In this document: positions 521-43,851 of the stretch, piece by piece
Layout: each line of letters opens with the position of its first letter
Numbering within the stretch: position 1 is the first letter of the stretch
From: Dehalococcoidia bacterium
Lineage (GTDB): Bacteria > Chloroflexota > Dehalococcoidia > Lucifugimonadales > UBA2985
Direction of reading: 5' to 3'
DNA: 64,000 bases
NCBI GenBank assembly: GCA_965219025.1
Contig: OZ244716.1
Coordinates: 327,812 to 391,811, forward strand
Position numbers and translations under genes: made by a program
Notes under the pieces: generated by a model
Told to the model about the DNA's origin: nothing
Databases searched by the model: none
Seen by the model: only the letters and a program-made list of their open reading frames with translations

Positions 521-2014
521 CTAGGGGGCTGCCCCCTGCTGAAGCGACGTGACTATGGGCTCCAGGCCCTGGGCGAATACGTCGGACACCAATGCGGGAT
601 ACACGCCCACCACCATGATGGCCGCCACGAGGGCAACCATGGGAACGGCCTCCAGTACGCTGGTATCCCCGACTCCGTCGAAACGGGGCAGCCGCGGGCC
701 GAAGAACGCGCGTTGCAGCATCCACAGTATGTATCCGGCCGTCAGCACAATTGCGAATACAGCAAGCGCGGTGATCCAACCCCAGACCTCGAAGGTACCG
801 AGGAACACGAGAAGCTCAGACACAAAGCCGCTCGTGCCGGGCAACCCAAGCGAGGCCAGGCCGGCGAGAAGGAATACCACGGCGATCACTGGCATGTTGG
901 AGGCCAGCCCTCCCATGTCCGGGATGTGACGCGTGTGCGCCTTCTCGTAAACTAAGCCGACGACAAGGAACAGGAGGCCGGTGATGGTGCCGTGCGTGAA
1001 CATCTGCATGGCTGCGCCCGTCAGCCCCACCGCGTTCACCACTCCACCGGCTCCCACAACGGACGCAATGCCCAGCAGTACGTACCCCATGTGGCTTATG
1101 CTGCTGAATGCCACCAGACGTTTCAGATCGGTCTGGCGAATGGTCACCACAGCGCCGTATAGAATGCTGATGATTGCCAGTCCTGCCAGCACCCAGGCGT
1201 ACTCCTGCGCCCGGCCCGGGAAAATGCCCACCGCCAGCCGGATCATGCCGTATCCGCCCATCTTCAGCAGAACGCCTGCGAGCATTACGCTGACGGCGGT
1301 CGGCGCGTCCGTATGGGCGTCTGGCAGCCACGTGTGAACGGGCCACACCGGCAGCTTGACCGCGAACCCAATGAAGAGGAACGCGAATATCGCGCCGGCC
1401 GGCAGCAGCATCCGCGCGCCCTCCACTCCCTGCAGCTCCACGATGTTGAACGTGCCCGTCGAGAAGTACAGCGCAAGGATGCCCACGAGCATGAAGGCGC
1501 TGCCCAACAGCGTGAAGATGATGAACTTCATGGCGGAGTACTCCCGCCGTCCGCTTCCCCAAAGCGAGATGAGGAAGTACATAGGCAAGAGTTCCAGCTC
1601 CCAGAAAATGAAGAACAGGACGGCGTCCATGGAAACGAACACGCCGGTAACCGCCGTCTGGAGCACCAAGAGCCAGACGAAGTACTCCTTCACGCGCACC
1701 TGGATGTTCCAGGACGCGAAGGCGGCGCACATGCCTAGCAGCGCCGTGAGGAGTACCAGGGGCACGCTCAGTCCGTCCACGCCCAGGTGATAGCGAATGT
1801 CCAGAGCTGCAATCCAGCTCACGTCCTCTACCAGCTCCATGTCGCCCACGCGGTTGAAGTCCTCCACGCGGAACACCACGAAGATGGCGATCGCCAGCGC
1901 AAGCTCCAGTACCGTGACTGCCAAGGCAAACACCTTTATCTGCCTGGCGTCCCTGAGTAGCACCAGGATTATGCCCGCAGCGATTAGAGGAAAGAAGACT
2001 ATCGCAGAAAGCAC
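521..2014 (-). CDS. nuoM: NADH-quinone oxidoreductase subunit M
   Basis: 497-aa polytopic ORF with ND4/NuoM-like sequence (WLPDAHTDAPTAVSVMLAGVLLKMGGYG). Lies between nuoL and nuoN. Confidence 0.95.
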   Translation of the reverse strand: MLSAIVFFPLIAAGIILVLLRDARQIKVFALAVTVLELALAIAIFVVFRVEDFNRVGDMELVEDVSWIAALDIRYHLGVDGLSVPLVLLTALLGMCAAFASWNIQVRVKEYFVWLLVLQTAVTGVFVSMDAVLFFIFWELELLPMYFLISLWGSGRREYSAMKFIIFTLLGSAFMLVGILALYFSTGTFNIVELQGVEGARMLLPAGAIFAFLFIGFAVKLPVWPVHTWLPDAHTDAPTAVSVMLAGVLLKMGGYGMIRLAVGIFPGRAQEYAWVLAGLAIISILYGAVVTIRQTDLKRLVAFSSISHMGYVLLGIASVVGAGGVVNAVGLTGAAMQMFTHGTITGLLFLVVGLVYEKAHTRHIPDMGGLASNMPVIAVVFLLAGLASLGLPGTSGFVSELLVFLGTFEVWGWITALAVFAIVLTAGYILWMLQRAFFGPRLPRFDGVGDTSVLEAVPMVALVAAIMVVGVYPALVSDVFAQGLEPIVTSLQQGAAP

Positions 2015-2036
2015 TCAGCTACCCTCTGTATCGTTC

Positions 2037-4064
2037 TCAATTCCACACCACGAACGCAACAACGATAAGCACGAGGCCCGCGGATATTCCCGCTCCGTAG
2101 GCCTGCACCTGACCCGTCTCCAGCTTGCCAATTGCTCGCCCCAGGTTCCTCCCAAACCATGCTACCACCGTACCTGCCATGTCCACGACGTTCCGGTCTA
2201 TCCAGTCCGTTGCCAGCGCCAGCCCTCGATAGAAGAGCCCGCGGGTGACCACGTCCTCGTAGAGGTTGTCGAAGTAGTACTTGTGCACCGCGGCGGTGTA
2301 CCCCGGCCCCATGCCGGCGGCGACGTCGTCAGGGTCAACGCTGCGCCGGTAGTACATCAGGTACGCCAGACCGATGCCTGCGAGCGCCACCGCGGTCCCC
2401 AGAGCGGCCACCAGCAGGTTGAAATTCGCAGCGTGCAGGGATACCAGCTCCACGTGGTCCAGGAAATCGACGAACCAGTGCGCCGGAATCACTCCCAAGC
2501 CCCACAGCGAGTTCAGAGGATTGGCCACGAAGCCGGATACGACGGACAGGACAGCGAGCACGGCCATTGGGGCCACCATCACCATCGGCGACTCCGCAAG
2601 GTGTACGCCGTGGCCTCCGCCGTTGTGGCCGCCGTGCTCCGCCTCGACGCCGCCCTGGAACTCGCCGTGAAACGTCATGAAGAGCGCCCGGAATATGTAG
2701 AATGCGGTCATGAACGCGGTCACCAGCGCCAAGTAGAACACAATCTGGCCCTGTGCGCCGCCAAAGTTCCATGCGGCGACCAGAATCTCGTCCTTACTCC
2801 AGAAGCCCGCCAGCGGGAAGATGCCACAGATACTCAGCGCGGCAATCAGGAAGGTCACGTAGGTCCAGGGCATTTGCCTCCTCAACCCGCCCATGTACCG
2901 CATGTCGAACGTTCCGGTGGCGTGGTTCACGCTACCGGAGCCAAGGAACAGGAGCGCCTTGAAGAAGGCATGGTTGAACAAGTGGAAGATCGCCGCCTCG
3001 TATGCGCCAACGCCCAACGCCAGCATCATGTACCCCAGCTGGCTCACGGTGGAGTACGCGAGGACGCGCTTGATGTCGAACATAACAAGGCCCATCGTGG
3101 CCGCGAAGAACGCCGTGAATGCTCCGATCGCCGCCACAACTCCCATCGCCGTGGTGGAGGCCTCGAAGAGCGGGAAGAAGCGCGCCACCAGGAACACGCC
3201 CGCAACCACCATGGTGGCCGCGTGGATGAGCGCGCTGACCGGCGTGGGGCCTTCCATGGCGTCCGGGAGCCAGACGTGCAGCGGGAATTGCGCCGACTTG
3301 CCCACCGCGCCGGCGAATATGCCCAGCGCAACCCACGTCGCGACTCCGCTGCCCATGGCCACTATCTGCGCGCCTGCAAGTTCGCCTCCCTGGGCCAGCA
3401 GGTTGATGTGCCCGATCTCGAACGGGTTGAGGCCCTGGCTCAGGAACGCCTCCCGGTTGAAGAACAGGTACAGAATGGCCAGCATGAAGCCCACGTCTCC
3501 CACTCTTGTGACCAGGAAGGCCTTCTTTGCCGCTGCAGCGGCGGACGGCCTGTCGTGCCAGAAGCCGATGAGCAAGTAGGAGGAGAGACCCACGAGCTCC
3601 CAGAATACGTACACCTGTATGATGTTGCGGGACAGAACCAGCCCCAGCATGGACGCCGTGAACAGCGACATGAAGGCGAAGTAACGGGAGTACCCTGAGT
3701 CGCGTTGCTTCTTCCCGTCGATTACGGGCTCCAGATAAGCCTGCGAGTAGATCTGCACGGCAAGGCTGACGCCGCTGACCACAACCAGCATGATGGCCGT
3801 GAGCGGGTCCATGAGGATGCCGAGGCTTATGTCCAGGTTGCCGACTACAATCCAGGAGTGAGCCGCCCACCCGATCTCGCCCTCGCCGCTTGCGACCTCG
3901 GCCAGTGCCACGAGGGAGAGCACGAACGCGGCGCCGATCGCCAGGATCGTCACGTAGCCGCTCAGGCTGTCGTGGCGGTTCAGGAACGGCCTGATCACGA
4001 GCGCGATGACAAGGAATGAGGCCAAAGGAAGAAACAGGATGGCCCATGCTGCTCCTTCGGTCAT
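2037..4064 (-). CDS. nuoL: NADH-quinone oxidoreductase subunit L
   Basis: 675-aa ORF with ND5/NuoL-like sequence (WLPDAMEGPTPVSALIHAATMVVAGVFL) and long C-terminal helices. Confidence 0.95.
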   Translation of the reverse strand: MTEGAAWAILFLPLASFLVIALVIRPFLNRHDSLSGYVTILAIGAAFVLSLVALAEVASGEGEIGWAAHSWIVVGNLDISLGILMDPLTAIMLVVVSGVSLAVQIYSQAYLEPVIDGKKQRDSGYSRYFAFMSLFTASMLGLVLSRNIIQVYVFWELVGLSSYLLIGFWHDRPSAAAAAKKAFLVTRVGDVGFMLAILYLFFNREAFLSQGLNPFEIGHINLLAQGGELAGAQIVAMGSGVATWVALGIFAGAVGKSAQFPLHVWLPDAMEGPTPVSALIHAATMVVAGVFLVARFFPLFEASTTAMGVVAAIGAFTAFFAATMGLVMFDIKRVLAYSTVSQLGYMMLALGVGAYEAAIFHLFNHAFFKALLFLGSGSVNHATGTFDMRYMGGLRRQMPWTYVTFLIAALSICGIFPLAGFWSKDEILVAAWNFGGAQGQIVFYLALVTAFMTAFYIFRALFMTFHGEFQGGVEAEHGGHNGGGHGVHLAESPMVMVAPMAVLAVLSVVSGFVANPLNSLWGLGVIPAHWFVDFLDHVELVSLHAANFNLLVAALGTAVALAGIGLAYLMYYRRSVDPDDVAAGMGPGYTAAVHKYYFDNLYEDVVTRGLFYRGLALATDWIDRNVVDMAGTVVAWFGRNLGRAIGKLETGQVQAYGAGISAGLVLIVVAFVVWN

Positions 4065-4122
4065 GATGCTGCTATGCCGCTCCCTTGATCATTATCAGAC
4101 GTCACTCCGCAAGAATCGCGCC

Positions 4123-4317
4123 CTAGAGCTTGCGCAGAATCTCCTCTGCAACGTGTTCCCTGCCCCGCGGCACCATGACCCGGTAGGGAACTCGCTCGCC
4201 CCAGGAGAGGATGTCGCCCTCGGGCAGAATCTGCGCGGGCAAGCCCTCTCCCTCCAGGAGCTCCTTCCACATCTCCGCGATCATCAGGTTTGGCGCCTTC
4301 TTGAAATCAACCCACAT
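4123..4317 (-). CDS. small DUF2007-like (putative signal-transducing) protein inserted in the nuo operon
   Basis: 64-aa ORF MWVDFKKAPNLMIAEMWKELLEGEGLPAQILPEG...YRVMVPRGREHVAEEILRKL. The pattern resembles DUF2007 small proteins. It is tightly packed between nuoK and nuoL on the same strand. Confidence 0.5.
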   Translation of the reverse strand: MWVDFKKAPNLMIAEMWKELLEGEGLPAQILPEGDILSWGERVPYRVMVPRGREHVAEEILRKL

Positions 4318-4323
4318 TGCGTA

Positions 4324-4722
4324 CTAACCACTCATCATATTTGCCTGCGTAACATCAACCGTGGAGCGGTTGCGGTACATGGCGATAACGATACCCAGAC
4401 CAAGCGCCACCTCCGCGGCGGCTATGGTAATGATGAACACAGCGAATATGTGCCCGGTTAGCAGGCTGCTCAGCACCGTCTCGCCGAGCGCGACTCCCTC
4501 CGTCATCATAGCGTTCGCCACCTCAGCCTCGGCGCCGGCCGGGTCGACCGCTATCCTCTGCGGCACCACATACCGGCTGAACGCCAGCAGCGCAATGTTG
4601 ACGGCGTTGAACATCAGCTCAATGGACATGAGGACCGTAATCACGTTCCTCTTCGAAAGCGCCCCGTACAGCCCGATGCTGAAGATGACGGCCGATACCA
4701 GAAGGAAGTTCTCCAGGCTCAG
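4324..4722 (-). CDS. nuoK: NADH-quinone oxidoreductase subunit K (CTG start inferred)
   Basis: The track ORF starts at GTG 4644, but the same frame is open upstream and encodes LSLENFLLVSAVIFSIGLYGALSKRN, which is NuoK TM1. The only start-like codon after the upstream in-frame TGA is CTG 4722..4720, which overlaps the nuoJ stop (cCTGA). GGAGG lies 7 nt upstream. Confidence 0.85.
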   Translation of the reverse strand: MSLENFLLVSAVIFSIGLYGALSKRNVITVLMSIELMFNAVNIALLAFSRYVVPQRIAVDPAGAEAEVANAMMTEGVALGETVLSSLLTGHIFAVFIITIAAAEVALGLGIVIAMYRNRSTVDVTQANMMSG

Positions 4723-5285
4723 GACTCACCCTCCCTCTCCCGCACCAGGGCAAGCGCGCCTATCACCGCCGCCAGCAGCACCACGGAGGCCGCCTCCATG
4801 GGCAGTACGAAGTCCTGTAGGAGAAGCCTTGCGATGACCTGCGTGGTGTCGCCGAACACGTCCCGGATGCCCTCTTCCGTGTGGCTGGGATCGACCGCCG
4901 CTGACTCGCCGGGCGCAACTGCGAAGCCCAGGTCGCCCCACTCGTTCCAGTCGGTGACCACAACGGCAAAGGCAATGGCCGCGAACACCAGCCCCGATAG
5001 CAGCAGCGCCGGCAACTGGAATCGGTTGGATGGATTGCCATCCTGCGAATTCCGCGTGAGCATTATGGCGAAGATGATGAGGACCGAAATGGCGCCCACG
5101 TACACCAGCACCTGCACCACGGCAAGGAACTCGGCGTTGAGCAGGACGAACAGCCCTGCAACCACCAGAAAGGAAACAACCAGGAACAGGGCCGCCCTGA
5201 AGATGTCCCTCTCAGATACCACGGCCAGCGCGGAGATTGTCCCCACCGCGGCCAGGCCCCAGAAGGCAATGTCCAGGGGAAACAT
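4719..5285 (-). CDS. nuoJ: NADH-quinone oxidoreductase subunit J
   Basis: 188-aa membrane ORF, ND6/NuoJ-like, in operon position between nuoI and nuoK. Confidence 0.9.
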   Translation of the reverse strand: MFPLDIAFWGLAAVGTISALAVVSERDIFRAALFLVVSFLVVAGLFVLLNAEFLAVVQVLVYVGAISVLIIFAIMLTRNSQDGNPSNRFQLPALLLSGLVFAAIAFAVVVTDWNEWGDLGFAVAPGESAAVDPSHTEEGIRDVFGDTTQVIARLLLQDFVLPMEAASVVLLAAVIGALALVREREGES

Positions 5286-5786
5286 CTAGCGGCCAACCTC
5301 TTCCCATGAGAGGGGCTCCCCGCCCTGAGGGCGGTAGTCACGCTCTTCCAGCTGGGGCCGGAACCAGGTGCTGGGTCGCTTTTCGGCACTTCGAAGTTCG
5401 TCCACCGTGATGATCAGATCGTCGCGGCGGTACTGCCCACGCTCGAAGCCGCTGCCCATGAACAGCGCGTCGTAGGGGCAGGCTTCCACGCACAGGCCGC
5501 AGAACATGCACCGCCCGATGTCGATGTCGAATACGTCGATGGCGTAGGACTCGCCCTCCTGCACGTTGGTGCCGCCCGGATGCGTCTCGATCCGTATGAT
5601 TCCTAGCGGGCAGTACTTGGCGCAGCTTGCGCAACCCGTGCACCTCTCTTCGTACCACACGAACTCCTCGCCTCGGAAGCGGGGCGACTGCGGCACCGCC
5701 TCCTCCGGGTACTGGACCGTGAACGGCTTTCTGAACAGGTTGGTCATCGTGACCATGAGTCCCTTTGCGATTCCTAGACCATACAT
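5286..5786 (-). CDS. nuoI: NADH-quinone oxidoreductase subunit I (2x[4Fe-4S] ferredoxin)
   Basis: Two CxxCxxCxxxCP motifs (CTGCASCAKYCP, CMFCGLCVEACP) and operon position. Confidence 0.95.
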   Translation of the reverse strand: MYGLGIAKGLMVTMTNLFRKPFTVQYPEEAVPQSPRFRGEEFVWYEERCTGCASCAKYCPLGIIRIETHPGGTNVQEGESYAIDVFDIDIGRCMFCGLCVEACPYDALFMGSGFERGQYRRDDLIITVDELRSAEKRPSTWFRPQLEERDYRPQGGEPLSWEEVGR

Positions 5787-5787
5787 G

Positions 5788-7005
5788 TCATCTGGCCTCC
5801 TGCGCTCGACCGCTAGATCTTCCAGGCACCGGAGCCAGCGGCGCTCGAGTGCTGAGCTTGTCTGAAATCAGGTGCGAGGACGCAACCAGGCACGCCAGAG
5901 CGACCACCCAGTTGATGCCTCCCATCAGCCACAGCTGAGCGATGGTGGGCTCTTCCCAGATCAACAGCTGACCCGCCGTAATGAACAGGTTGATGAGCCC
6001 CAGAGGGAACAGGAACTTCCACGCCAGTGCCATTATCTGGTCCACTCGCAGCCTTGGCAGCGTGGCCCTGACCCAGAGCAGCACGAACCATACGGCCCAC
6101 ACCTTGATGAAGAACCACAGTTCCGAGGGCAGTACCGGTCCATCCCAGCCCTTGAGGAACAGCGTGGTTACGATGGACGCAGCGCCGAACGGGGCGATGA
6201 ACTCCGCCAGCTGGAACGTGCCCCACTTCATGCCGCTGTACTCCGTGTGGAACCCCGCCACCAGCTCCGAGTCCGCCTCCACGATGTCGAACGGCGAGCG
6301 GTTCATCTCCGCCGAAATCGCCACCATGAAGATGAAGAACCCCAGCGGCTGGATCAGTATGAAGGGCACTCGCTGGCTATCGACTATGTCCACGAGCGAA
6401 AGCGAGCCGGCCAGCAGCAGAACGCCGACGATCGACAGCACCAGCGGCACCTCGTAGCTGACCAGCTGCGCGACTCCGCGCATGGCGCCAAACAGCGAGT
6501 ACCGGTTGCCAGAGCCCCAGCCGGCCATGAACATGGCGATCGTTGGCACGGTGGTCACGGCGATAATGTAGAGAATGCCGATGTTGAGGTTGGCGATGTA
6601 GGTGTTCTCGCCGAACGGGATGACGGCGAAGACCAGGAGAGGACCCAGTATGAAGACGAGGGGCGCGAGGTTGAACACCCAGCCGTCCACGCCCTCCGGC
6701 CTGGTGTCCTCCTTGGTGAGCAGCTTCAGCGCGTCCGCAATGGGAGTGAATAGACCAAACGGGCCCCACCGGTTGGGGCCGAGCCTCGACTGGAACCGCC
6801 CAATGACCCGGCGCTCCACCCAGGTGCCCAAGGTGGTCACAAGAACCACTATGTTTATCACGATGAATATTATCAGGAAGCCCGCGATGCAGTACGCGAG
6901 CCACTGCGGAATCAGTGACACGCCAAAGACGTTCAACCCCGCGAAGAAGTCGTAGAGGTTGCCGAAGAAGGCGTTGGCCTCTCTGAATGGGGTGTAGCCT
7001 CCCAT
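5788..7005 (-). CDS. nuoH: NADH-quinone oxidoreductase subunit H
   Basis: 405-aa polytopic ORF, ND1/NuoH-like (RRVIGRFQSRLGPNRWGPFGL; EYSGMKW). Confidence 0.95.
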   Translation of the reverse strand: MGGYTPFREANAFFGNLYDFFAGLNVFGVSLIPQWLAYCIAGFLIIFIVINIVVLVTTLGTWVERRVIGRFQSRLGPNRWGPFGLFTPIADALKLLTKEDTRPEGVDGWVFNLAPLVFILGPLLVFAVIPFGENTYIANLNIGILYIIAVTTVPTIAMFMAGWGSGNRYSLFGAMRGVAQLVSYEVPLVLSIVGVLLLAGSLSLVDIVDSQRVPFILIQPLGFFIFMVAISAEMNRSPFDIVEADSELVAGFHTEYSGMKWGTFQLAEFIAPFGAASIVTTLFLKGWDGPVLPSELWFFIKVWAVWFVLLWVRATLPRLRVDQIMALAWKFLFPLGLINLFITAGQLLIWEEPTIAQLWLMGGINWVVALACLVASSHLISDKLSTRAPLAPVPGRSSGRAQEAR

Positions 7006-7007
7006 GT

Positions 7008-8111
7008 CTACCGGTCCACCTCACCCATGTTGATGTCGATGCTGCCGAACGTGACGATCATGTCGGCCAGCTTCCAGCCAATGAGGATGTCCCGCAGCAC
7101 GGTCAGGTTGATGAGCGACGGCGACCGAATCTTGCACCTGTAAGGAGCGATGCTTCCGTCGCTCACCAGGTAGAAGCCCAGCTCGCCTTTGGGCGATTCC
7201 ACGTGGGCGTAGGCGTCGCCCGCGGGAGGCCGCACCAGATTGGGAATCCTCTCGCGGACCGGGCCTTCCGGTATCTGGTCCACGCACTGCTGGATGATGC
7301 GCAGCGATTGCCTCATCTCCGCGATGCGAAGCAGGTAGCGGTCGTAGTTGTCGCCGAAAGTGCCAACCGGTATGTCGAAATCCAGCCGGTCGTATATGTC
7401 GTAGGGGTCCGCCTTGCGCAGGTCCCAGTTCACGCCGGCGGAGCGGAGCACGGGGCCGCTGGCGGAGCAGTTGATGGCCGTCTCGCCGGTCAGCACGCCG
7501 ATGTTCTTGGTGCGGGACAGGAGTATCTCGTTACCCGTGAGCAGCTTCTCGTACTCGTCGATGTACTCGGGCATGAAGACCAGGAAGTCACGAATGGCGG
7601 TCCAGAACTCCGCCGGCGCGTCCTGGAACACGCCGCCAACGCGCATGTAGGTCAGCGTGATGCGTGCGCCGCAGAGCATCTCGAACATGTCGAGTATCTT
7701 CTCCCGCTCCCGGAAGCAGTACATGAGAGGCGTTGCCAGAGCGCCCAGGTCGTTCAGGAAGAACCCCGTGGCCACCAGGTGGCTCGCAATGCGTTGAAGC
7801 TCCGCGGCGATGACTCGGAGGTACATGGCACGTTCAGGCGGGCGTATGCCGGACAGCTTCTCCACGGCCAGCACGTAGGCCAGGTTGTTGGACATGGAGG
7901 CAACGTAGTCCAGTCGGTCGGTCAGGGTGACCACCTGGGCGTAGGTACGCTCCTCGGCCAGCTTCTCCGAGCCCCGGTGCAGGTAGCCGACTACGGGCTC
8001 CACGTCCAGGATGATCTCACCGTCGAATGTTATGCGCATTCGAAAAACGCCGTGAGTGCTGGGGTGCTGTGGCCCCAGATTAAGGGTTACCGGCTCGGTG
8101 CGAATCGTCAT
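7008..8111 (-). CDS. nuoD: NADH-quinone oxidoreductase subunit D
   Basis: NLGPQHPSTHGVFRMRI...GYLHRGSEKL signature, 367 aa. Confidence 0.95.
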   Translation of the reverse strand: MTIRTEPVTLNLGPQHPSTHGVFRMRITFDGEIILDVEPVVGYLHRGSEKLAEERTYAQVVTLTDRLDYVASMSNNLAYVLAVEKLSGIRPPERAMYLRVIAAELQRIASHLVATGFFLNDLGALATPLMYCFREREKILDMFEMLCGARITLTYMRVGGVFQDAPAEFWTAIRDFLVFMPEYIDEYEKLLTGNEILLSRTKNIGVLTGETAINCSASGPVLRSAGVNWDLRKADPYDIYDRLDFDIPVGTFGDNYDRYLLRIAEMRQSLRIIQQCVDQIPEGPVRERIPNLVRPPAGDAYAHVESPKGELGFYLVSDGSIAPYRCKIRSPSLINLTVLRDILIGWKLADMIVTFGSIDINMGEVDR

Positions 8112-8148
8112 CTGTCGCTTCTGCTCCGGGAATGTAGCTCCGGGGATG

Positions 8149-8601
8149 CTACCTGGGAGCCTCCAGATAGTCCTTGCGCTGGGGATGGCCGGGATAGCCC
8201 TCCCACAGCATCAATCGCTTGAGGTTTATGTGGCCCGTAAAGCGGACGCCCATCAGATCGTAGACCTCCCGTTCCTGGAAGTCCGCGCCCTGCCACAGGC
8301 CCGTCACCGAGGGCACGTTCGGATCCTCCCTGCCCCAGCACCTGGCCTTCACCACCGCGCCGTGGTTGTGGGCAGTCGACACCAGGTGGTACACCACCTC
8401 GAAGTGCTCAATGTAGTCAACGGCGGAGACGGAGATCAAGTAGTCGAACTTGAGGTCCGGGTCGTCCTTCAGGAAGCTGCACACGTCCGCCACGGACTCG
8501 GCCCTGACCCAGACGTCCCGCTCGTTGGACTCCTCCACCGCGCCCGGGACGGAGTCAGCCAGGCGGCTCGCAAGCAGGTCTGCGCTCAGGGTCACTGTCA
8601 T
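8149..8601 (-). CDS. nuoC: NADH-quinone oxidoreductase subunit C
   Basis: 150-aa ORF between nuoB and nuoD with a 30-kDa-subunit-like core (FDYLISVSAVDY, FEVVYHL). Confidence 0.9.
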   Translation of the reverse strand: MTVTLSADLLASRLADSVPGAVEESNERDVWVRAESVADVCSFLKDDPDLKFDYLISVSAVDYIEHFEVVYHLVSTAHNHGAVVKARCWGREDPNVPSVTGLWQGADFQEREVYDLMGVRFTGHINLKRLMLWEGYPGHPQRKDYLEAPR

Positions 8602-9249
8602 CTACGCACCCGCGGCATTGCCGAACAGGCTGTACTTCTTAATCTTCTCGTGGAGCTGCATGATGCCGTACAGGAGAGCGTCCGGCCTCGGCGGGCAGCC
8701 CGGGACGTAGACGTCCACCGGCACGATGCGGTTGACACCAGGCACAACGCTGTAACCCTGGTAGTACGGACCGCCGCTGGTGGCGCAGACGCCCATGGAG
8801 ATCACCCACTTGGGCTCCGGCATCTGGTCGTAGAGTCGACGGATGGCCGGCGCCATCTTCCACGTCACCGTGCCTGCCACAATCATCAGGTCGGCCTGCC
8901 TGGGCGAGGCGCGCATGGCCTCCATGCCGAAGCGCGAGATGTCGAACCTGGACATCGCGCTCGCGATCATCTCGAAGGCGCAGCACGCAAGCCCGAACGT
9001 CATCGGAAACACGGACGACTTGCGGCTCCAGTTCAGGAGGGCGTCCACGGAGGTGACGACCACGTTCCGCTCGAATTCCGGATCAACCTGGATGGAGTCG
9101 CGGGCGAACGGCTCAAGGTGCGTGGCCTTCATGTCGTTGATGACCGCTCCCTCCTCGCGGTCAATGTCCCAGGTGGTTGCGTACAGGGGCACGGTCACTC
9201 CGGGCACCTGCGCCCCGGAAGCGCTCCCAGGCTGCATATCAAGCGACAT
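8602..9249 (-). CDS. nuoB: NADH-quinone oxidoreductase subunit B
   Basis: [13 protein letters not shown]...[10 protein letters not shown]...[11 protein letters not shown], the N2 cluster ligands. The N-terminal extension is longer than usual. Confidence 0.95.
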
Positions 9250-9252
9250 GTG

Positions 9253-9636
9253 CTACCTCCACTCCAGAGCCTTGTACCTCCACGCGTAGGCCCAACCCAC
9301 CACCAGGATCAGGATAAAGACCAGCATCTCCACGAAGGCGAACAGTCCAAGCTGTTTGAAGTGAACGGCCCAGGGATAGATGAATATCGTCTCAACGTCA
9401 AAGATTACGAAAAGAATGGCGAACATGTAGTAGCGGAAGTTGAACTGCGGCCAGCGGTCTCCTATGAGTTCCATGCCGCACTCGTAGGGGCTCCTCTTGG
9501 TCTCGGTGGGCTTGTGGGGACGAACGCGAATGTAGGAGAACAGCCAAGATACCACGAGCAGCGTGCCCGGCAGCACCACCGCTACAACGGTGAAGACGGC
9601 GATGAGGCCGTACTGGCGGAAATAGTCCTCAAGCAC
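9253..9636 (-). CDS. nuoA: NADH-quinone oxidoreductase subunit A
   Basis: SPYECGME motif. The track start at 9678 overlaps the promoter. GTG 9636 ([15 protein letters not shown]...) has GGAGG 9 nt upstream and gives the usual ~127 aa. Confidence 0.85.
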
Positions 9637-9668
9637 AGGCCATTGCCTCCGCGTCAAACATCGGAAGG

Positions 9669-9697
9669 AATATAGCACAGGGCAAGCCTGTTATCAA
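9669..9697 (-). promoter_or_regulatory. sigma-70-type promoter of the nuo operon
   Basis: Minus strand reads TTGATA (9697..9692), then a 17-nt spacer ending in TGTGc, then TATATT (9674..9669). This lies about 30 nt upstream of the nuoA GTG. Confidence 0.6.
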
Positions 9698-11197: not shown

Positions 11198-11704
11198 ATG
11201 CCAAAGTCCAATACAAAACGAGCCAAGCCAAAGGCCAAGCCTAAGAGCCAGACCGGCGCGGTCACTATGAACCGCCGCGCCTATCACGACTACGACATCC
11301 TGGAGACGGTGGAGGCCGGCCTCGCGCTCACGGGAACCGAGATCAAGTCCGTACGCTCAGGGAAGATGAACATCCAGCACGCCTTCGCCAAGGCAGAGGC
11401 CGGAGAGGTCTGGCTGGTGAACTCCCACATCGCCCCGTACGAGCAGGGCAACATCCACAACCACGAGCCGACGCGGCCGCGCAAGCTCCTGCTGCACGCA
11501 AAGGAGATCGGCCATCTGTCCGGCGCCACGGCACAGAAGGGCCTGACACTCGTGCCCCTGCGAGTGTACATCAAGGGCCACTACGCCAAGGTGCAGGTCG
11601 GCCTTGCCCGAGGGCGCAGGCTCTACGACAAGCGTCGCGCCATCATCGACCGGGACCAGGAGCGGGAGGCCGGCCGCGCCATAAGCGCAGCAGCCCGCGG
11701 CTGA
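11198..11704 (+). CDS. smpB: SsrA-binding protein
   Basis: NRRAYHDYDILETVEAGLALTGTEIKSVR... is canonical SmpB. It lies directly upstream of the tmRNA. Confidence 0.95.
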   Translation: MPKSNTKRAKPKAKPKSQTGAVTMNRRAYHDYDILETVEAGLALTGTEIKSVRSGKMNIQHAFAKAEAGEVWLVNSHIAPYEQGNIHNHEPTRPRKLLLHAKEIGHLSGATAQKGLTLVPLRVYIKGHYAKVQVGLARGRRLYDKRRAIIDRDQEREAGRAISAAARG

Positions 11705-11816: not shown

Positions 11817-12169
11817 GGGGACGCGTGGTCTCGACAGGGGGTGGTTTCGCGGGATTGCAGGCCGGGGTGCCGTCCACCTCGTCAACAAGGCGGCAAAAAA
11901 GTAACTGGCGAAAATAAAGTAGCCCTGGCAGCCTAACACGGCTGCCACGTCCACCCTAACCTCTCCTCGAAGGTGAGGAGTGGGCGCCATAAGTCGAGGT
12001 GCAGCCCGCGCAACGCCGGTAGCGAGGGCCCAAGACCACCGGCTGGCTCCCAAAGAATCCCTGCCGGCAGGGGACCTTGAGAGCGAGAACCAATTACCGG
12101 ACAAGCCTGTAGCACATTCCAGCGGGAAGCTCTCTGGACGGGGAGTTCGACTCTCCCCCGTCTCCACCA
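11817..12169 (+). ncRNA. ssrA: tmRNA (SsrA)
   Basis: 5' GGGGACG pairs with 3' CGUCUCC-ACCA, including a G3:U70 wobble (the Ala identity element). T-arm GGAGUUCGACUCUCC is present. Internal tag ORF GGC GAA AAT AAA GTA GCC CTG GCA GCC TAA (11907..11936) encodes GENKVALAA. Confidence 0.95.
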
Positions 12170-12370
12170 ACCTATCACTACACAAGTCCGCGACCGTCCG
12201 GGCACGCCAAGGTCCCGTCGCACTCAGTCAACGAACCCGCGCCGTCAAGCGGGATGCCCGGCCGCCGTAAGCAAATGTTAAGGAATGTTGACCGTGCGAC
12301 AGCTTGCAGGCGGTCACTCGGATGGTATCATTACGCGCGGGTTAGCCATTAGCTAGGAGGACAACCGAGC

Positions 12371-13129
12371 TTGAGCCAGCGAGCAGTGAACGGCCGGCGC
12401 AACTCAGCCATCAGCGCCCTTGCACTGGGCGCAGTGCTCCTGTTCGCTGTGAGTTCAGCGTGCAGTTCCGAGCCGGATCCCACTGCGACCCAACCGGCAA
12501 TGGCCACCTCCGCGCCTTCGGCGACCCCCGCTCCGACGCCAACCGCGCCCCAGGCCGCTGAGCCAACGGAAGCGAGCATGGCTCATGCCGAGACGCCTAC
12601 CGTCGCCTCCGCCACGACCGCCGCTCCCACCGCGACCGCTGTGCCTTCGGCGACGGCCAATGAGGAGCCCGCCGATGCCCCGCCCGTCGGGACCAACGTC
12701 GGCAACACCCTGCCGCACTTCGAAATGACGCTTGCAGACGGATCGAGGGTGTCAACGGATGTGCTAGCGGCTCAGGGACAGCCCGTCTTTCTCTACTTCT
12801 TCGCAACGTGGTGACCGGTATGTCGCGCCGAGTTGCGGCGCCTGAAGCAGGACTACCCCGAATACGCAGATAGCGTTGAACTATACGCCATCGGACAGGA
12901 CGTGACTGAGGGCGTCGGCAGGCTGGAGGACTACCGGGCCAGCGAAGATCTCCCCTTCCCGGTTGCCGAAGTCAGCAACAACGTTCTGCGAAGCCTGGAG
13001 ATAATCAGGCAGTCCACCAAGGTCGCCGTCGATCACAACGGAGTCATCACCTATCGCGCCGGCATCGGCGAAGGCGAGGGTGACTGGCCCAAGGTGTTCT
13101 CCGAGCTGGCGAGCGGCGCCGGGGGCTAG
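12371..13129 (+). CDS. TlpA/ResA-like thiol:disulfide oxidoreductase lipoprotein with in-frame TGA (candidate selenocysteine, U-P-V-C)
   Basis: Track ORFs 12371..12814 and 12833..13129 share one frame. Joined, they read ...QPVFLYFFATW-[TGA 12812..12814]-PVCRAELRRLKQ..., a redoxin WCxxC motif with TGA at Cys1. Lipobox signal LFAVSSAC. AGGAGG lies upstream of the TTG start. Confidence 0.7.
12464..12690 (+). repeat. low-complexity Thr/Pro/Ala-rich linker coding region
   Basis: Encodes PTATQPAMATSAPSATPAPTPTAPQAAEPTE...TTAAPTATAVPSATA between the lipobox and the redoxin domain. Confidence 0.8.
12812..12841 (+). promoter_or_regulatory. UGA plus downstream hairpin (bacterial SECIS candidate)
   Basis: UGA, 10 nt, then GCGCCG-AGUUG-CGGCGC (12825..12841): a 6-bp GC stem and a 5-nt loop with G at loop position 2. 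Confidence 0.5.
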
Positions 13130-13228: not shown

Positions 13229-13258
13229 TTGACAACGCCAGCACACTTGTTCTATACT
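13229..13258 (+). promoter_or_regulatory. sigma-70-type promoter
   Basis: TTGACA (13229..13234), 18-nt spacer, TATACT (13253..13258). Downstream hairpin CCCTTT-gaagtcg-AAAGGG overlaps the AGGGAGG Shine-Dalgarno sequence. Confidence 0.5.
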
Positions 13259-13289
13259 TCCCTTTGAAGTCGAAAGGGAGGTGACGGCA

Positions 13290-13529
13290 ATGGTGGGAAG
13301 CGCTCTACTCATACCCGAAAGCGAAATTGAAACCGTTCACGTGCCCGTGGCCATTCCGGCGGCTGAGCGGGTGGTGATCAAGCTCCACGGCCGTTTTGAC
13401 GACGTGAGGTCAGCGGCCGCTCGCTTCCGCATTGACCTCAACTGGGACCGCTCGGAACGCCTGCCCGGCGACGTCTGCTCCGTAGAGGGCAGGCTCACAG
13501 TTGCGGAATCGCAGCGGCTCTTCCTGTAG
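13290..13529 (+). CDS. hypothetical protein (79 aa)
   Basis: ATG 13290 lies 8 nt after AGGGAGG and has its own promoter and a downstream hairpin. No family recognised. Confidence 0.4.
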   Translation: MVGSALLIPESEIETVHVPVAIPAAERVVIKLHGRFDDVRSAAARFRIDLNWDRSERLPGDVCSVEGRLTVAESQRLFL

Positions 13530-21523: not shown

Positions 21524-21901
21524 CTAGTCCTTCCCCGCCGGCACGAACCTGAGCGAGAGGGAGTTGACGCAGTGTCGCGTGTTCTTGTCCGTCAGTCGCT
21601 CGCCGAGAAAAACGTGGCCGAGGTGGCCGCCGCAGTTGACGCACTCGATCTCGATGCGCATGCCGTCCGGGTCCGGCAGACGCCTCACAGCGCCCGGGAT
21701 CTCGTCGTCGAACGCGGGCCAGCCGCAGAGGGCGTCGAACTTGTCCTCGGAGCGATAGAGGACCGCGTTGCAGCGCCGACAGACGTACCTGCCTTCATCG
21801 TAAAAGTCGTCGTACTCGCCGGAGAAGGGCCGCTCAGTGCCCTTCATCTCGATGACGAAGCGCTCCTCCGGAGTGAGGGTATTGTATGCGGTTTCGGTCA
21901 T
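21524..21901 (-). CDS. msrB: peptide-methionine (R)-S-oxide reductase
   Basis: CxxC...CxxC zinc site and GHLGHVF...RHCVNS catalytic region. Confidence 0.9.
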
Positions 21902-28121: not shown

Positions 28122-28709
28122 CTACGCGCCAAGCGTCTGGGACAGTAGAGAGCGGATGTCCTTGACGGTGTCCTTCTGCCACTCGGGGAAGCGAGCGTTC
28201 ACGCGGTCCCTGCGGGCGTCGCGCACGGCGTCCTCGCCCTGCCCGGCCAGCTCGGTCTCCACGGCCTTGGTTATGTCGGCCATTTCCTGCGTTACCGACT
28301 CCGGCCTCTCGATCCAGTGGCACAGGTACTCCTGGTCGGCGTTGTAGAAGACCAGCGTGGGGATGGAGCGGAACTCGCCCCTGTTCAGGAACTCGTCGGC
28401 GATGTCGAGGTTCTCGTCCCTGGGGAACACCCGCATCTCCATGCCGGACACCGCCGCAATGCGCCCGATGACGGGCATGCCGCGATAGACGTCCGGGCAC
28501 CAGTCCTCGCCGACCACCACCACGCGGGAGCAGCCTTTCTCCACGGCCGCCTTGAAGAAGCCGGCGTCATCGTCCGACACGGCCTCCACTGCGGTCTCGT
28601 CATACATGGCGAATCGGTCCTGGTTGACCTTGATCTGCGCCAGGTAGTCGCTGTAGTCAAAGCCCTGGGCAAACCTTTCCGACGATACTACGGTTGTTTT
28701 CTCAGCCAT
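28122..28709 (-). CDS. thioredoxin-fold protein (Thioredoxin_9-like), single-Cys WCPDV motif
   Basis: VVVVGEDWCPDVYRGMPVIGRIA...IPTLVFY. AAGGAGGAG lies before the ATG. Confidence 0.7.
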   Translation of the reverse strand: MAEKTTVVSSERFAQGFDYSDYLAQIKVNQDRFAMYDETAVEAVSDDDAGFFKAAVEKGCSRVVVVGEDWCPDVYRGMPVIGRIAAVSGMEMRVFPRDENLDIADEFLNRGEFRSIPTLVFYNADQEYLCHWIERPESVTQEMADITKAVETELAGQGEDAVRDARRDRVNARFPEWQKDTVKDIRSLLSQTLGA

Positions 28710-33718: not shown

Positions 33719-34678
<960 letters not shown>

Positions 34679-36773: not shown

Positions 36774-37991
36774 TCAGCTCGCGATTGGAAGCCGCCTCCG
36801 CGCTCGGTGCCCGGTCTCCGGCAGGCTGCGTGCCGCGATGGCTGCCGTCAACGGCATGGCCGCCAGCACGGCCAGACTCGGCACGTAAGAGCCCACCGCG
36901 TCCGTGACCACGCCGACCATGAACGGCGAAATCACGGTGGACGCGTTGCCTATGGTCAGCACGGCCGCCGTAACCAGAGCCACCCGCTCCATGTCCACGC
37001 CCGGAAGCTCCATGGCGATTGTGAACACGGTGGGCAGGAATAGCCAGAAGCTGAAGCCCAGCAGGACTATTGATGCAAGAATGATACCCGTGTTATTGAA
37101 GTAGAACGCGCCAAACGCCCCGATGGGAAAGAGCAAGCCAGGGATGGCCAGCATCGGCCTGTGCAGTCCCAGGCGCGCCAGAAGGAAACCGGACAGCAGG
37201 TTGACCACGACACCCATCAGGGGTAGCAGCGCTAGTATCGCCGTCGCCTGCTGCAGGGGCATGTCGAACACCTCGTTGTAGTAGGTGGGCAGCCATGAGC
37301 TGTAGCCAATGAACATCGCGAACGGCCCCACCAGCGCAAACGACAGCAGGAGGGTGTTCCGCTCGCGCAGGGCGGCCAGCACGGACTTCGCGGTCATGGT
37401 CTGCGGGGCTGACCCTGCTGTGCGGCCTCCCCTGCCGAGGGCCAGCCATCCCAGCGTGGCCAAGAACGCGAAGCATGCGTAGATCATGAGCACGACTCGC
37501 CACTCCAGCGCCTCCGCCAGCGGCACGCTCAGGAACATGGCGGAGGCCACGCCCGTGCCCTGCGCCGCCAGCATCAGCGCGTTCATCACCCCTCGCTCCG
37601 TGGGCCTGAACCACTCTACTATGATGGATGCCGTGGCAGGCAGCAGGATGGCCCCACCAATGCCGAACGTCATTCTCAGGGGCAGCAGAGTAGCGATGTC
37701 TGTCGTTAGGGGCGCCAGCACACCAGCCGACATTAGCAGTCCGCTCACCAGGACCGCTCGCCTGGTCCCCAGCTTGGAAGATACGATGCCGCCCGGTATC
37801 AGACAGAGCGTGAACGCCAGGAAGACCAGCACCATGAGGAGGCTGACAGAGCTTCTCGATACGCCGTAGTCATCGATGATGATGGGAAAGAGAGGCGCTG
37901 CCGAGAACAGGTTGAGGCCAATGGCAACATGCAGGGGTAAGATGGCCCCCGCTATGACCCAGCGATAGGAGCTAGCCTCTGGGCGCTGTAT
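36774..37991 (-). CDS. MFS transporter (non-canonical start inferred: ATA 37991 or CTG 38012)
   Basis: The first ATG/GTG/TTG is at 37835. The frame stays open upstream to TAG 38021..38019 and encodes ...SSYRWVIAGAILPLHVAIGLNLFSAAPLFPIIIDDYGVSRSS, which aligns with TM1-TM2 of the paralog at 26776. GGGGAG lies 6 nt before ATA 37991. Confidence 0.75.
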   Translation of the reverse strand: MQRPEASSYRWVIAGAILPLHVAIGLNLFSAAPLFPIIIDDYGVSRSSVSLLMVLVFLAFTLCLIPGGIVSSKLGTRRAVLVSGLLMSAGVLAPLTTDIATLLPLRMTFGIGGAILLPATASIIVEWFRPTERGVMNALMLAAQGTGVASAMFLSVPLAEALEWRVVLMIYACFAFLATLGWLALGRGGRTAGSAPQTMTAKSVLAALRERNTLLLSFALVGPFAMFIGYSSWLPTYYNEVFDMPLQQATAILALLPLMGVVVNLLSGFLLARLGLHRPMLAIPGLLFPIGAFGAFYFNNTGIILASIVLLGFSFWLFLPTVFTIAMELPGVDMERVALVTAAVLTIGNASTVISPFMVGVVTDAVGSYVPSLAVLAAMPLTAAIAARSLPETGHRARRRLPIAS

Positions 37992-38150
37992 GTTGCTCTC
38001 CCCTGCCCGCAGTCCAGCCTACGTTGACGACATGCCCCCACAAAGGGGTGCGAAAGTGTCGTATTCTAACCGTAAACGACCTGCCTCCGAACGCTGACGC
38101 TCGGAGGCAGGAGCTTCATGTGTACCTTAGTTGCCGATCGTGTCCCTGGA

Positions 38151-42963: not shown

Positions 42964-43851
42964 ATGCGTACGCATGCCGTCCTGCTGATTGGCCTCGTTT
43001 GTTTGTGCCTCGCCGCCTGCGGCGCTGAGGACACGCCTCGCCCTCCGGCCAACACTCCCACGGACGCCCACGCCGAGCCGACACCCTCGCCCGCAGCCAC
43101 GGATACCCCTCAGCCCACAGCTACACCGGCTCCGACCTCCACACCCAGCCCGACGCCGACCCCCTCTCCGACTGACACCCCGCCGCCGACCGACTCTCCG
43201 ACACCCCGCCTTACCGCGACGCCGACGGCCGAGCCAACTGAGACCGCAGAACTCACGTCCACGCCTGCTCCGACCGCGACCTCCGTTCCCACTCCCACGC
43301 CGCAGCCCACGGCTACTCTTACGCCCACGCCAACCGCGACGTCCGAGCCCACGGCCACGCCTACGCCGGAGGCAACGCCCATGCCCGCTCGTACTATCGG
43401 CACGAATGTCGGCGACCAGGCGCCCAACTTCAGCCTTCCCGCCGCTTCCGGGCAGTCCCAGTCGCTTGTGTCGTACAGGGGCGACAAGCAGGTCGTAGTC
43501 GTGTTCTATAGGGCGTTCTGGTGACCGTACTGCAGAGGTCAGCTCGGCGAGCTGACAGGAGTGTACGGACGGATCCAGGAGCTGGACGCCGAGGTGCTTG
43601 CCATCAGCGTGGACAACCTCAGCGGAGCGGAGGACGTGGTGAATACCATTGGCATTCCCTTCCCGGTCTTGTACGACGTATCGAGACAGGTTCCCAGGAC
43701 CTATGGGGTCTACAACCTGCTTGGCGACAACCTGGCCGCGCCCGCCACCTTCATCGTTGACCGGGACGGTGAAATCGTGTGGAAGTACGTCGCCGGTTCC
43801 AAGGGAGACAGGCCGTCCGTGTCGATGATCCTGTCCAGGCTGGGCGGCTGA
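42964..43851 (+). CDS. AhpC/TSA (peroxiredoxin-like) redoxin lipoprotein with in-frame TGA (candidate selenocysteine, U-P-Y-C)
   Basis: Track ORFs 42811..43524 and 43561..43851 share one frame. Joined, they read ...KQVVVVFYRAFW-[TGA 43522..43524]-PYCRGQLGELTGVYGRIQELDAEVLAISVD... Signal MRTHAVLLIGLVCLCLAAC includes a lipobox. Confidence 0.7.
43021..43394 (+). repeat. low-complexity Thr/Pro-rich linker coding region
   Basis: Encodes about 125 aa of PTPSPAATDTPQPTATPAPTSTPSPTPTPSPTDTPPPTDSPTP... Confidence 0.8.
43522..43556 (+). promoter_or_regulatory. UGA plus downstream hairpin (bacterial SECIS candidate)
   Basis: UGA, 13 nt, then GUCAGCU-CGGCG-AGCUGAC (43538..43556): a 7-8 bp stem with G at loop position 2. 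Confidence 0.5.

Follow-up and report, generated by a model that had tools for sequence, protein, structure and literature searches.

A selenoprotein family named 'Thiol-disulfide isomerase-like protein', with the redox motif UxxC (U, selenocysteine, Sec) and the domain cd02966, was predicted from the Sargasso Sea metagenome in 2005 (PMC1088965). In a 2026 review of the prokaryotic selenoproteome this family is listed, Prx-like (peroxiredoxin-like) UxxC proteins stand in the current list of selenoprotein families, and criteria are given for the bacterial selenocysteine insertion sequence (bSECIS): a loop of 3-9 nt, a stem of 4-16 bp, a minimum free energy of at most -7.5, a G as first or second nucleotide of the loop, as a rule with G or U after it, and a distance of 16-37 nt from the UGA (PMC13188914). 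Two Dehalococcoidia metagenome-assembled genomes (MAGs) with 49 and 46 selenoprotein genes are among the ten richest bacteria in BSepDB (PMC13326102), Chloroflexi selenoproteins and tRNA-Sec (8/4) are on record (PMC1794560, PMC5389517), and SelA and SelB were reported to be enriched in sponge-symbiont bins (PMC5649159). Here we describe a stretch of 64,000 nucleotides (the window; all coordinates below refer to it unless a locus is named) from a Dehalococcoidia bacterium of the Chloroflexota (assembly GCA_965219025.1, contig OZ244716.1, positions 327,812 to 391,811 of the forward strand). It carries on its plus strand, at 12371..13129, a TlpA/ResA-like redoxin gene with an in-frame TGA in place of the first Cys codon of its active site. 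We are confident that 12371..13129 is one gene of the selenoprotein type, in which the UGA is recoded.

The coding sequence begins at a TTG codon, which is preceded at 10 nt by the Shine-Dalgarno sequence AGGAGG (12355..12360, read from the sequence), and runs through 252 codons in one frame to a TAG stop (13127..13129), with the TGA at 12812..12814 (codon 148) as its sole internal stop. The peptide around this codon is FLYFFATW-[TGA]-PVC-RAELRR. With the TGA read as selenocysteine, U148 would be the attacking residue of a W-U-P-V-C motif, aligned with the TGT or TGC of Cys homologs, and the TGT at 12821..12823 encodes Cys151, the predicted resolving residue of the UxxC and an invariant column (C51) in the family alignment A1. 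Public records carry the gene as two separate open reading frames (ORFs), an N-terminal piece (P0014) and a 98-aa 'gene' (P0001, 12833..13129, plus strand), which is spurious and in truth the C-terminal part of the selenoprotein. Public protein collections hold it only as fragments, the N-terminal ones stopping at ...FATW and the C-terminal ones, 97-98 aa long, starting with MRRLKQ.... An earlier interpretation of this DNA, made from the letters alone (the sequence-only reading), had described the pieces 12371..12814 and 12833..13129 as lying in the same frame, split by a single TGA exactly at the first Cys of W-C-x-x-C, and had held that gene callers usually split or miss such genes and that neither half would fold alone; the frame and the TGA are as described, TGT or TGC stands at that codon in the Cys homologs, the public records show the split for this gene and neither piece has a complete thioredoxin fold. 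One JGI product (P0007, from L038, Ga0643534_0328822) is full-length and has W at this position; the DNA at L038:459..461 is TGA, and the W is probably a translation convention only.

The two ORFs in the public calls, and the fact that the Sec machinery is not among the genes of the window, would also be expected if a Cys-type TlpA gene had acquired a nonsense mutation, leaving two remnants, or if the ORFs encoded independent small proteins. For two genes the downstream piece is badly placed, as it has no Shine-Dalgarno sequence or other ribosome-binding site and its 'start', the TTG at 12833, falls inside the loop of the hairpin described below. A pseudogene is contradicted by the conservation data. 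Orthologs were recovered from five Dehalococcoidia/Chloroflexota MAGs when species-representative genomes were scanned (L001-L005, 70-96% protein identity), all five of which have TGA at the same codon and a protein conserved on both sides of it, and a metagenome scan with the family alignment yielded 49 further loci. When all loci are taken together, the codon for the first Cys of WCxxC is TGA in 44 and TGT or TGC in 50, and TAA or TAG in none; the TGA-bearing loci include six distinct species-level genomes (that of the window and five others) as well as metagenome contigs. The ratio of nonsynonymous to synonymous substitution rates (dN/dS, Nei-Gojobori) among close orthologs was 0.07-0.3 over the 96 codons downstream of the TGA, similar to the 0-0.45 upstream of it for the same ortholog pairs. 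The downstream values indicate that the sequence after the TGA is under selection as protein in this frame. Random disruptions in orthologs, which the sequence-only reading had named as an outcome that would speak against it, were not what we found; the TGA and the hairpin are conserved instead. With the same TGA shared by all orthologs, even those at 46-55% identity, and by a second clade, no frameshifts and such constraint downstream, the explanation by a pseudogene or by two genes is extremely improbable.

A bare in-frame stop could also arise from a sequencing or assembly error, or reflect a genome-wide reassignment of TGA (code 4 or 25). This stop, however, recurs unchanged in assemblies and samples independent of one another, among them a population variant (L090), 94-95% identical, that has the same TGA and the same hairpin; among its 40 nt differences from the window in the overlap, ~36 lie in the linker and one, which is synonymous, lies downstream of the TGA. 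Furthermore, TGA is a normal stop elsewhere, as had been proposed earlier: it terminates 12 of the 42 Pfam-supported genes of the window, including smpB (11198..11704) and nuoJ (4719..5285, minus strand). Because the TGA is shared by independent assemblies and TGA acts as a stop elsewhere in the window, we regard this explanation as refuted, its probability being practically nil.

An alignment of the U/C column, one of the checks proposed in the sequence-only reading, showed TGT or TGC in full-length Cys homologs where the window gene has TGA. In full-length relatives at 46-49% identity the motif is W-C-P-T-C, and the codon is TGT in all three whose DNA was examined. The TGA forms belong mainly to two clades. 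Clade A, which includes the window gene, is marine and has the peptide C-R-A-E-L-R-R; clade B, from contigs that we take to be soil-derived, has P-Y-C-[TA]-R-E-L-P-S. Three TGA forms (L026, L074 and L089) are outliers to both clades. The Krumholzibacteriia MAG JAUUYW010000026.1 (L026) contains three adjacent TlpA-like paralogs, at 1603, 2441 and 3109, one of which reads W-[TGA]-P-V-C, with a hairpin of its own (GGUCCG...CGGACC), while the other two have Cys (TGC).

The SECIS-like hairpin GCGCCG-AGUUG-CGGCGC is located at 12825..12841 on the plus strand, with the stem at 12825-12830/12836-12841 and the loop AGUUG at 12831-12835. It starts 10 nt past the TGA and has an energy of -10.5 kcal/mol. 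Its 5-nt loop, 6-bp stem, loop sequence A-G-U, spacing of 16 nt and energy all fall within the published bSECIS limits quoted above. The coordinates, the distance from the TGA and the bSECIS geometry claimed in the sequence-only reading were thereby found to be exact; its placement of the apical-loop G about 16 nt from the UGA applies to the start of the loop (16 nt) and not to the G itself (12832), which is 17 nt away.

The comparative data are more telling than the fold of a single sequence. When a fixed register was scored (TGA, 10 nt, 6-bp stem, 5-nt loop), 6/6 pairs were present in 31 of the 33 distinct sequences with TGA and in none of the 50 with Cys, the latter having a mode of 1-2 of 6 pairs. 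The loop AGUU(G/A) is constant across differing stems, which are GCGCCG/CGGCGC in the window, GCGCUG/CAGCGC in L038, GCUCCG/CGGAGC in L041, GUGCCG/CGGCGC in L044-48 and CGAGGG/CCCUCG in clade B. Paired cells amounted to 96.5%, compared with 36-55% when the 3' arm was slid by 1 to 3 columns; compensatory change on both sides was observed in 5 of the 6 stem pairs, and the covariation score was 0.844 versus 0.14-0.23, a score reached by 0 of 500 shuffles. RNAalifold run without a supplied structure recovered the same six pairs. A covariance analysis on orthologs had been suggested in the sequence-only reading, and in ours the hairpin covaries. Within clade A, independent compensatory events were found in L038 (C-G to U-A), L041 (G-C to U-A) and L044 (C-G to U-G).

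The synonymous sites of the hairpin codons in clade A are nearly frozen. Where Arg is retained at +8 and +9 (13 sequences), only one of its six codons is used at each of the two positions, and later four-fold codons use all four. With 58-63% identity to the Sec forms L043/L044, the three closest Cys forms are nearer to these than L043/L044 are to the window. These three Cys forms still have the peptide C-R-A-E-L but with other codons, form 2 of the 6 pairs, have lost the loop G and fold at 0 to -3.9 kcal/mol, versus -10.5 for the window hairpin. As these Cys forms have the same peptide but no hairpin, the structure tracks the TGA and not the protein sequence.

Frame and conservation data alone would leave the inserted residue unspecified, and it is generally known that downstream structures stimulate read-through in some systems. 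The UGA might then be read independently of SelB, by a near-cognate Trp or Cys tRNA and with stimulation by the hairpin, or its read-through might be regulated, giving a 147-aa lipoprotein as well as the full-length protein; the W in the JGI product for L038 would fit the former if it were more than the translation convention that it probably is. The TGA nevertheless falls precisely on the catalytic Cys of WCxxC, a position at which Trp would abolish activity, and the hairpin has the bSECIS geometry and the conserved G-U loop signature. In addition, two unrelated stems share the loop AGUU(G/A) and the spacing, as for a SelB-binding element and not for a generic roadblock. We give SelB-independent read-through hardly any credence and prefer recoding directed by a SECIS.

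Such recoding could in turn insert Cys, either through a selC*-type tRNA(Cys)UCA and a SelB paralog acting on the same hairpin or through mis-insertion of Cys at scarce selenium. Bacterial selC* tRNA(Cys)UCA with dedicated selB*/cysS*, decoding Sec-type UGA as Cys, is on record, and the conserved TGA, the SECIS hairpin and the U/C column are equally compatible with Cys insertion. However, the reports of selC* come from Firmicutes, Thermodesulfobacteria, Nitrospirae and Deltaproteobacteria and do not extend to Chloroflexi, a complete Sec system accompanied it in every case, and Dehalococcoidia are recorded as Sec users. There is, moreover, no selective reason to keep TGA and a hairpin across species, in place of the TGT of the Cys-form relatives, unless Sec is advantageous. 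We consider insertion of Cys very unlikely. We infer that the inserted residue is selenocysteine, the insertion of which would require sel genes and selenium.

The window holds a second candidate selenoprotein gene, separate from the first, at about 42964..43851 on the plus strand, which is predicted to encode a lipobox, a Thr/Pro linker and an AhpC/TSA Prx-like domain (AhpC-TSA, 7e-32). Its active site reads W-[TGA 43522..43524]-P-Y-C and is followed by the hairpin GUCAGCUC-GGC-GAGCUGAC at 43538..43556. Nearly all of the 95 listed protein clusters related to it are fragments starting after the TGA. TGA and hairpin are conserved in its relatives, and in L004 the ortholog has in addition retained the synteny (PrpD, gene, tRNAs, tuf). 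This second conserved UxxC gene, together with the records on Dehalococcoidia, Chloroflexi and sponge symbionts given above, provides good indirect evidence for the Sec trait in this lineage; from MAG names only, some of the related genomes are suspected to be sponge-associated. A further relative (L092, ~1580..3421 on the plus strand, ENA ERZ25072076 ctg245925_16x_c) has a lipoprotein signal and three tandem Prx-like domains in one frame, joined by Thr/Pro linkers, and each domain has an in-frame TGA (F-U-G-I-C once and W-U-T-Y-C twice). Hairpins were inspected at the second and third domains only; they are present there, with compensatory differences between them. Gene callers have cut this frame into four ORFs. 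Many database 'proteins' (P0022, P0040, P0043 and P0060) are artefacts of L092-type genes with the order C-half, linker, N-half.

The product of the gene at 12371..13129 starts with a lipoprotein-type signal peptide (12371..12463), which has basic residues R4, R9 and R10, a hydrophobic core and the lipobox V-S-S-A-C leading to Cys31. A PROSITE-style lipobox rule was satisfied by the window protein, seven Sec-form orthologs and two Cys-form homologs; by this rule-based call the protein has the export signal of the TlpA/ResA-like class, and the lipobox signal followed by a Thr/Pro linker, as described in the sequence-only reading, was found again, the Cys31 lipobox being matched in the window and in all tested orthologs. 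A twin arginine (RR, 12395..12400) in the n-region of the signal is conserved in most orthologs. As a signal for the twin-arginine translocation (Tat) system it is a poor one, the context of the RR failing the consensus S/T-R-R-x-F-L-K. The signal is followed by a low-complexity linker rich in Thr, Pro and Ala (residues 32-109 of the translation, 12464..12697), which would tether the domain to the lipid anchor. The linker region is disordered in the AlphaFold (AF2) model of the Cys homolog P0008 and varies in length from ~30 to 130 residues among orthologs. It evolves much faster than the folded domain, and many of the linker differences in L090 are non-synonymous.

The thioredoxin-fold TlpA/ResA-like redoxin domain comprises residues 110-228 (12698..13054). 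With Cys substituted at the stop, Pfam matched AhpC-TSA at E=1.5e-15 and Redoxin at 1.1e-09 over these residues, and since the match lies on both sides of the TGA, a single domain runs across the stop. The top PDB sequence matches were ResA (4nmu, 2e-09), DsbE/CcmG (2g0f/2b1k), StoA (3erw) and tryparedoxins, with the WCxxC aligned. The AlphaFold model, which is that of P0008 (49% identical to the window protein) and was built from a 5-sequence alignment with moderate confidence, showed a domain with a predicted local distance difference test (pLDDT) score of ~60-87, a thioredoxin fold and a helix 1 (105-117) starting at the CxxC (C104-C107). The top Foldseek matches of this model were ResA, with a template modelling (TM) score of 0.76, and Etrx1, Etrx2, SdbA and MPT53, the scores for ResA, Etrx and SdbA ranging over 0.7-0.76. 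In the homolog model the fold and the CxxC at the N-terminus of helix 1 are those of the TlpA/ResA-like class, which is marked by an N-terminal beta-hairpin and a central insertion. The protein missed the NCBIfam equivalog cutoffs for ResA (50.6/170), DsbE (32.3/359), StoA (31.8/210) and dsbE TIGR00385 (30.1/123), and scores so far below the cutoffs rule out orthology with any named enzyme. The assignment to TlpA/ResA-like redoxins in the sequence-only reading is supported as to fold class by the ResA, DsbE and Etrx matches, with the nuance that the protein is a generic TlpA-like redoxin, not orthologous to ResA, DsbE or TlpA, and has no canonical cis-Pro. A peroxiredoxin reading, for which PF00578 as the best Pfam match would speak, was rejected by inspection: the active site T-W-U-x-x-C, with Thr at -2, is of the thioredoxin type and not the peroxidatic PxxxTxxC, and the strand Q-S-T-K-V-A-V-D before the G-x-I turn has no conserved activating Arg.

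The mechanism that we propose would operate as follows. In translation the UGA at 12812 would not be read as a stop; the mRNA hairpin at 12825..12841 (loop AGUUG), 10 nt downstream, would act as a bacterial SECIS and recruit SelB-GTP-Sec-tRNA(Sec), and Sec would be inserted at codon 148. After export and lipidation at Cys31, the domain would hang outside the membrane on its Thr/Pro-rich linker. There, on the model of ResA, TlpA and Etrx, the protein would cycle between the selenol/thiol form and the selenenylsulfide U148-C151 in exchange with substrate disulfides or oxidised partners, most likely as a reductase that draws its electrons from a membrane shuttle. Compared with Cys, Sec has a lower pKa and a higher nucleophilicity. 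We are similarly sure that the protein is a membrane-anchored extracytoplasmic thiol-disulfide oxidoreductase of the TlpA/ResA type, with selenocysteine as the nucleophile of W-U-P-V-C. As to its specific role, we lean slightly, on analogy, towards a surface disulfide reductase; the direction of electron flow and the physiological substrate are likewise what we infer from analogous systems.

Several results weigh against these conclusions. ARAGORN and Rfam gave only a tmRNA (transfer-messenger RNA) and three tRNAs in the 64-kb window, with no tRNA-Sec, and ARAGORN found no tRNA-Sec in 24 related loci either. A tblastn search of the window and related loci with E. coli SelA, SelB and SelD returned EF-Tu only, and Pfam detected no SelA, SelB-wing or AIRS domains across ~60 window ORFs; these searches covered the window and the related loci only. 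The folding energy around the TGA is unremarkable (65-nt region, z = -0.17 versus shuffles, 64% GC), and it is because energy by itself is not exceptional in sequence of 64% GC that the significance of the hairpin is drawn from the comparative data. Among these, independent compensatory events are few, about 5 to 8, because most compensatory cells stem from the split between clades A and B. Rfam gave no match to the hairpin at the gathering threshold, nor when E was relaxed to 10; to our knowledge Rfam has no bacterial SECIS model, and this null is uninformative. As regards the protein, the canonical cis-Pro (x-P-T) is absent, the 'PT' of ResA (4nmu) pairing with 'ST' in the alignment, and Pfam found no CcdA/DsbD, ResB/C, Ccm (cytochrome c maturation) or Sco genes in the window. 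The functional role is assigned by analogy only.

The position of the cis-Pro loop is occupied in the window by S-T-K (13037..13045, ...RQSTKVAVD...). In the L001-L089 alignment [S/T]-T-K is invariant in the window's clade and in archaeal Cys homologs, and clade B keeps T-P-T. These archaeal homologs come from MAGs labelled Thaumarchaeota/Nitrosopumilales, Nanoarchaeota, Woesearchaeota and Methanosarcinales. One could imagine that the window clade is a distinct functional class, with a substrate chemistry unlike classical disulfide reduction and with Sec/Cys switching that tracks habitat, which we think rather unlikely. Such a class may consist of marine Dehalococcoidia Sec forms and bacterial and archaeal Cys forms, all with [S/T]-T-K, placed here on a long Thr/Pro surface tether.

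Directly upstream of the selenoprotein gene, after smpB, lies the tmRNA (11817..12169, plus strand), with the tag GENKVALAA (GEKQVALAA in relatives). The order smpB, tmRNA, selenoprotein gene is kept in four of the five orthologous loci (L001, L002, L003 and L005), and is functionally uninformative. Further upstream, a nuo operon (521..9678, minus strand) comprises nuoA-B-C-D-H-I-J-K-L-M in that order, nuoE/F/G being absent between nuoD and nuoH, and represents a complex I without the NADH-oxidising module. Just past the selenoprotein gene there is a near-consensus sigma-70-like promoter (13229..13258, plus strand; TTGACA, 18 nt, TATACT, 11/12), and an 82-aa ORF downstream of it (13281..13529) has no Pfam match. 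An MsrB gene (Pfam SelR, 3e-39; 21524..21901, minus strand) is found 8 kb downstream of the selenoprotein gene on the opposite strand, and a Thioredoxin_9 protein (28122..28709, minus strand) 15 kb downstream of it; the two could be redox partners of the selenoprotein or unrelated to it. The window also carries an IS110-family transposase (33731..34678, plus strand; DEDD_Tnp_IS110 and Transposase_20) and an ORF for a major facilitator superfamily (MFS) transporter (36774..37835, minus strand). The Pfam profile of the latter was matched only from position 39, and an ORF-free gap of 316 nt (37836..38150) precedes the ORF, the start of which may be mis-placed or the N-terminus of which may be disrupted.

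For annotation the case matters in that the public entries of this genome and of related ones show the gene split into the anonymous ORFs P0014/P0001, or its TGA rendered as Trp, and that the same holds for the second gene 31 kb away and for the multi-domain relatives. With corrected calls, redox enzymes are made whole again in genomes that rank with the richest in selenoproteins known from bacteria. As a minimal bacterial SECIS, with a 6-bp stem, an AGUU(G/A) loop and the shortest allowed spacing, the hairpin is a clean example that covariation supports. Two unrelated stems with one loop, together with close Cys relatives that have lost the hairpin, would make it a good training or test case for bacterial selenoprotein predictors.

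When set beside described systems, the hairpin resembles the E. coli fdhF-type SECIS and the bSECIS model of the review (PMC13188914) in being a stem-loop that lies in the coding sequence directly 3' of the UGA, has G and then U in a small apical loop and keeps a spacing within 16-37 nt. Unlike the fdhF-type element, it is minimal, with a stem of 6 bp and the shortest allowed spacing (16 nt), and neither a bulged U nor an extended lower stem is conserved in it. The protein is matched best, in sequence and structure, by ResA (Bacillus), CcmG/DsbE (E. coli; M. tuberculosis MPT53), TlpA (Bradyrhizobium) and StoA, with which it shares the W-C-x-x-C site at the N-terminus of helix 1 and a membrane-anchored extracytoplasmic domain. 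It differs from them in having Sec instead of Cys and S-T-K for the cis-Pro loop, and no cytochrome c maturation genes are found near the window gene. Pneumococcal Etrx1 and Etrx2 (4hqs, 4hqz) and SdbA (5um7) are, like it, TlpA-like thioredoxins anchored as lipoproteins outside the cytoplasmic membrane. In oxidative-stress defence they carry electrons on from CcdA to a methionine sulfoxide reductase (Msr) outside the cell, and an Etrx-type electron relay to Msr is the most plausible functional analogy for the window protein. Etrx1, Etrx2 and SdbA are, however, Cys proteins without a long Thr/Pro linker, and the window gene has no adjacent CcdA or exported Msr.

Among selenoproteins, the 'Prx-like thiol:disulfide oxidoreductase' family (PF00578; UxxC/UxxU; PMC1794560, PMC13188914) shares with the window protein the PF00578 match and the UxxC. 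The second gene (TGA 43522) fits this family well (AhpC-TSA 7e-32), whereas the protein of 12371..13129 is nearest to TlpA/ResA-like proteins; the two window proteins are paralogous at best. A curated precedent for thioredoxin-like selenolipoproteins exists in NCBIfam NF041057, the 'Rcas_1661 family thioredoxin-like (seleno)lipoprotein', whose 'Rcas' prefix we take to stand for Roseiflexus castenholzii (Chloroflexi). It matches only the second gene, marginally (20.6 bits versus a cutoff of 190), and the 12371..13129 protein not at all, and is therefore a different family. The Thiol-disulfide isomerase-like family has in common with the window gene a TlpA-like thioredoxin domain, a single Sec at the first position of UxxC, a marine metagenomic origin and the logic of its prediction, a Sec/Cys pair together with a bSECIS. 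Motif and domain class agree, in a comparison made by description and not with the reference sequence MGB1650493.1. The window clade has a lipobox, a Thr/Pro linker and no cis-Pro, features that are not mentioned in the accessible parts of the accounts of this family (PMC1088965, PMC13188914). The statement in the sequence-only reading that UxxC redoxins are known from metagenomic surveys was correct. Less ordinary are the lack of the cis-Pro in the clade, the surface tether and the tandem relatives with several Sec residues, for none of which novelty is claimed. Because TlpA-like UxxC proteins have been listed since 2005 and Dehalococcoidia are known to be rich in selenoproteins, the window gene is of a known kind: it is a new, mis-annotated case of a known selenoprotein type, and what is known of Sec decoding is unchanged by it.

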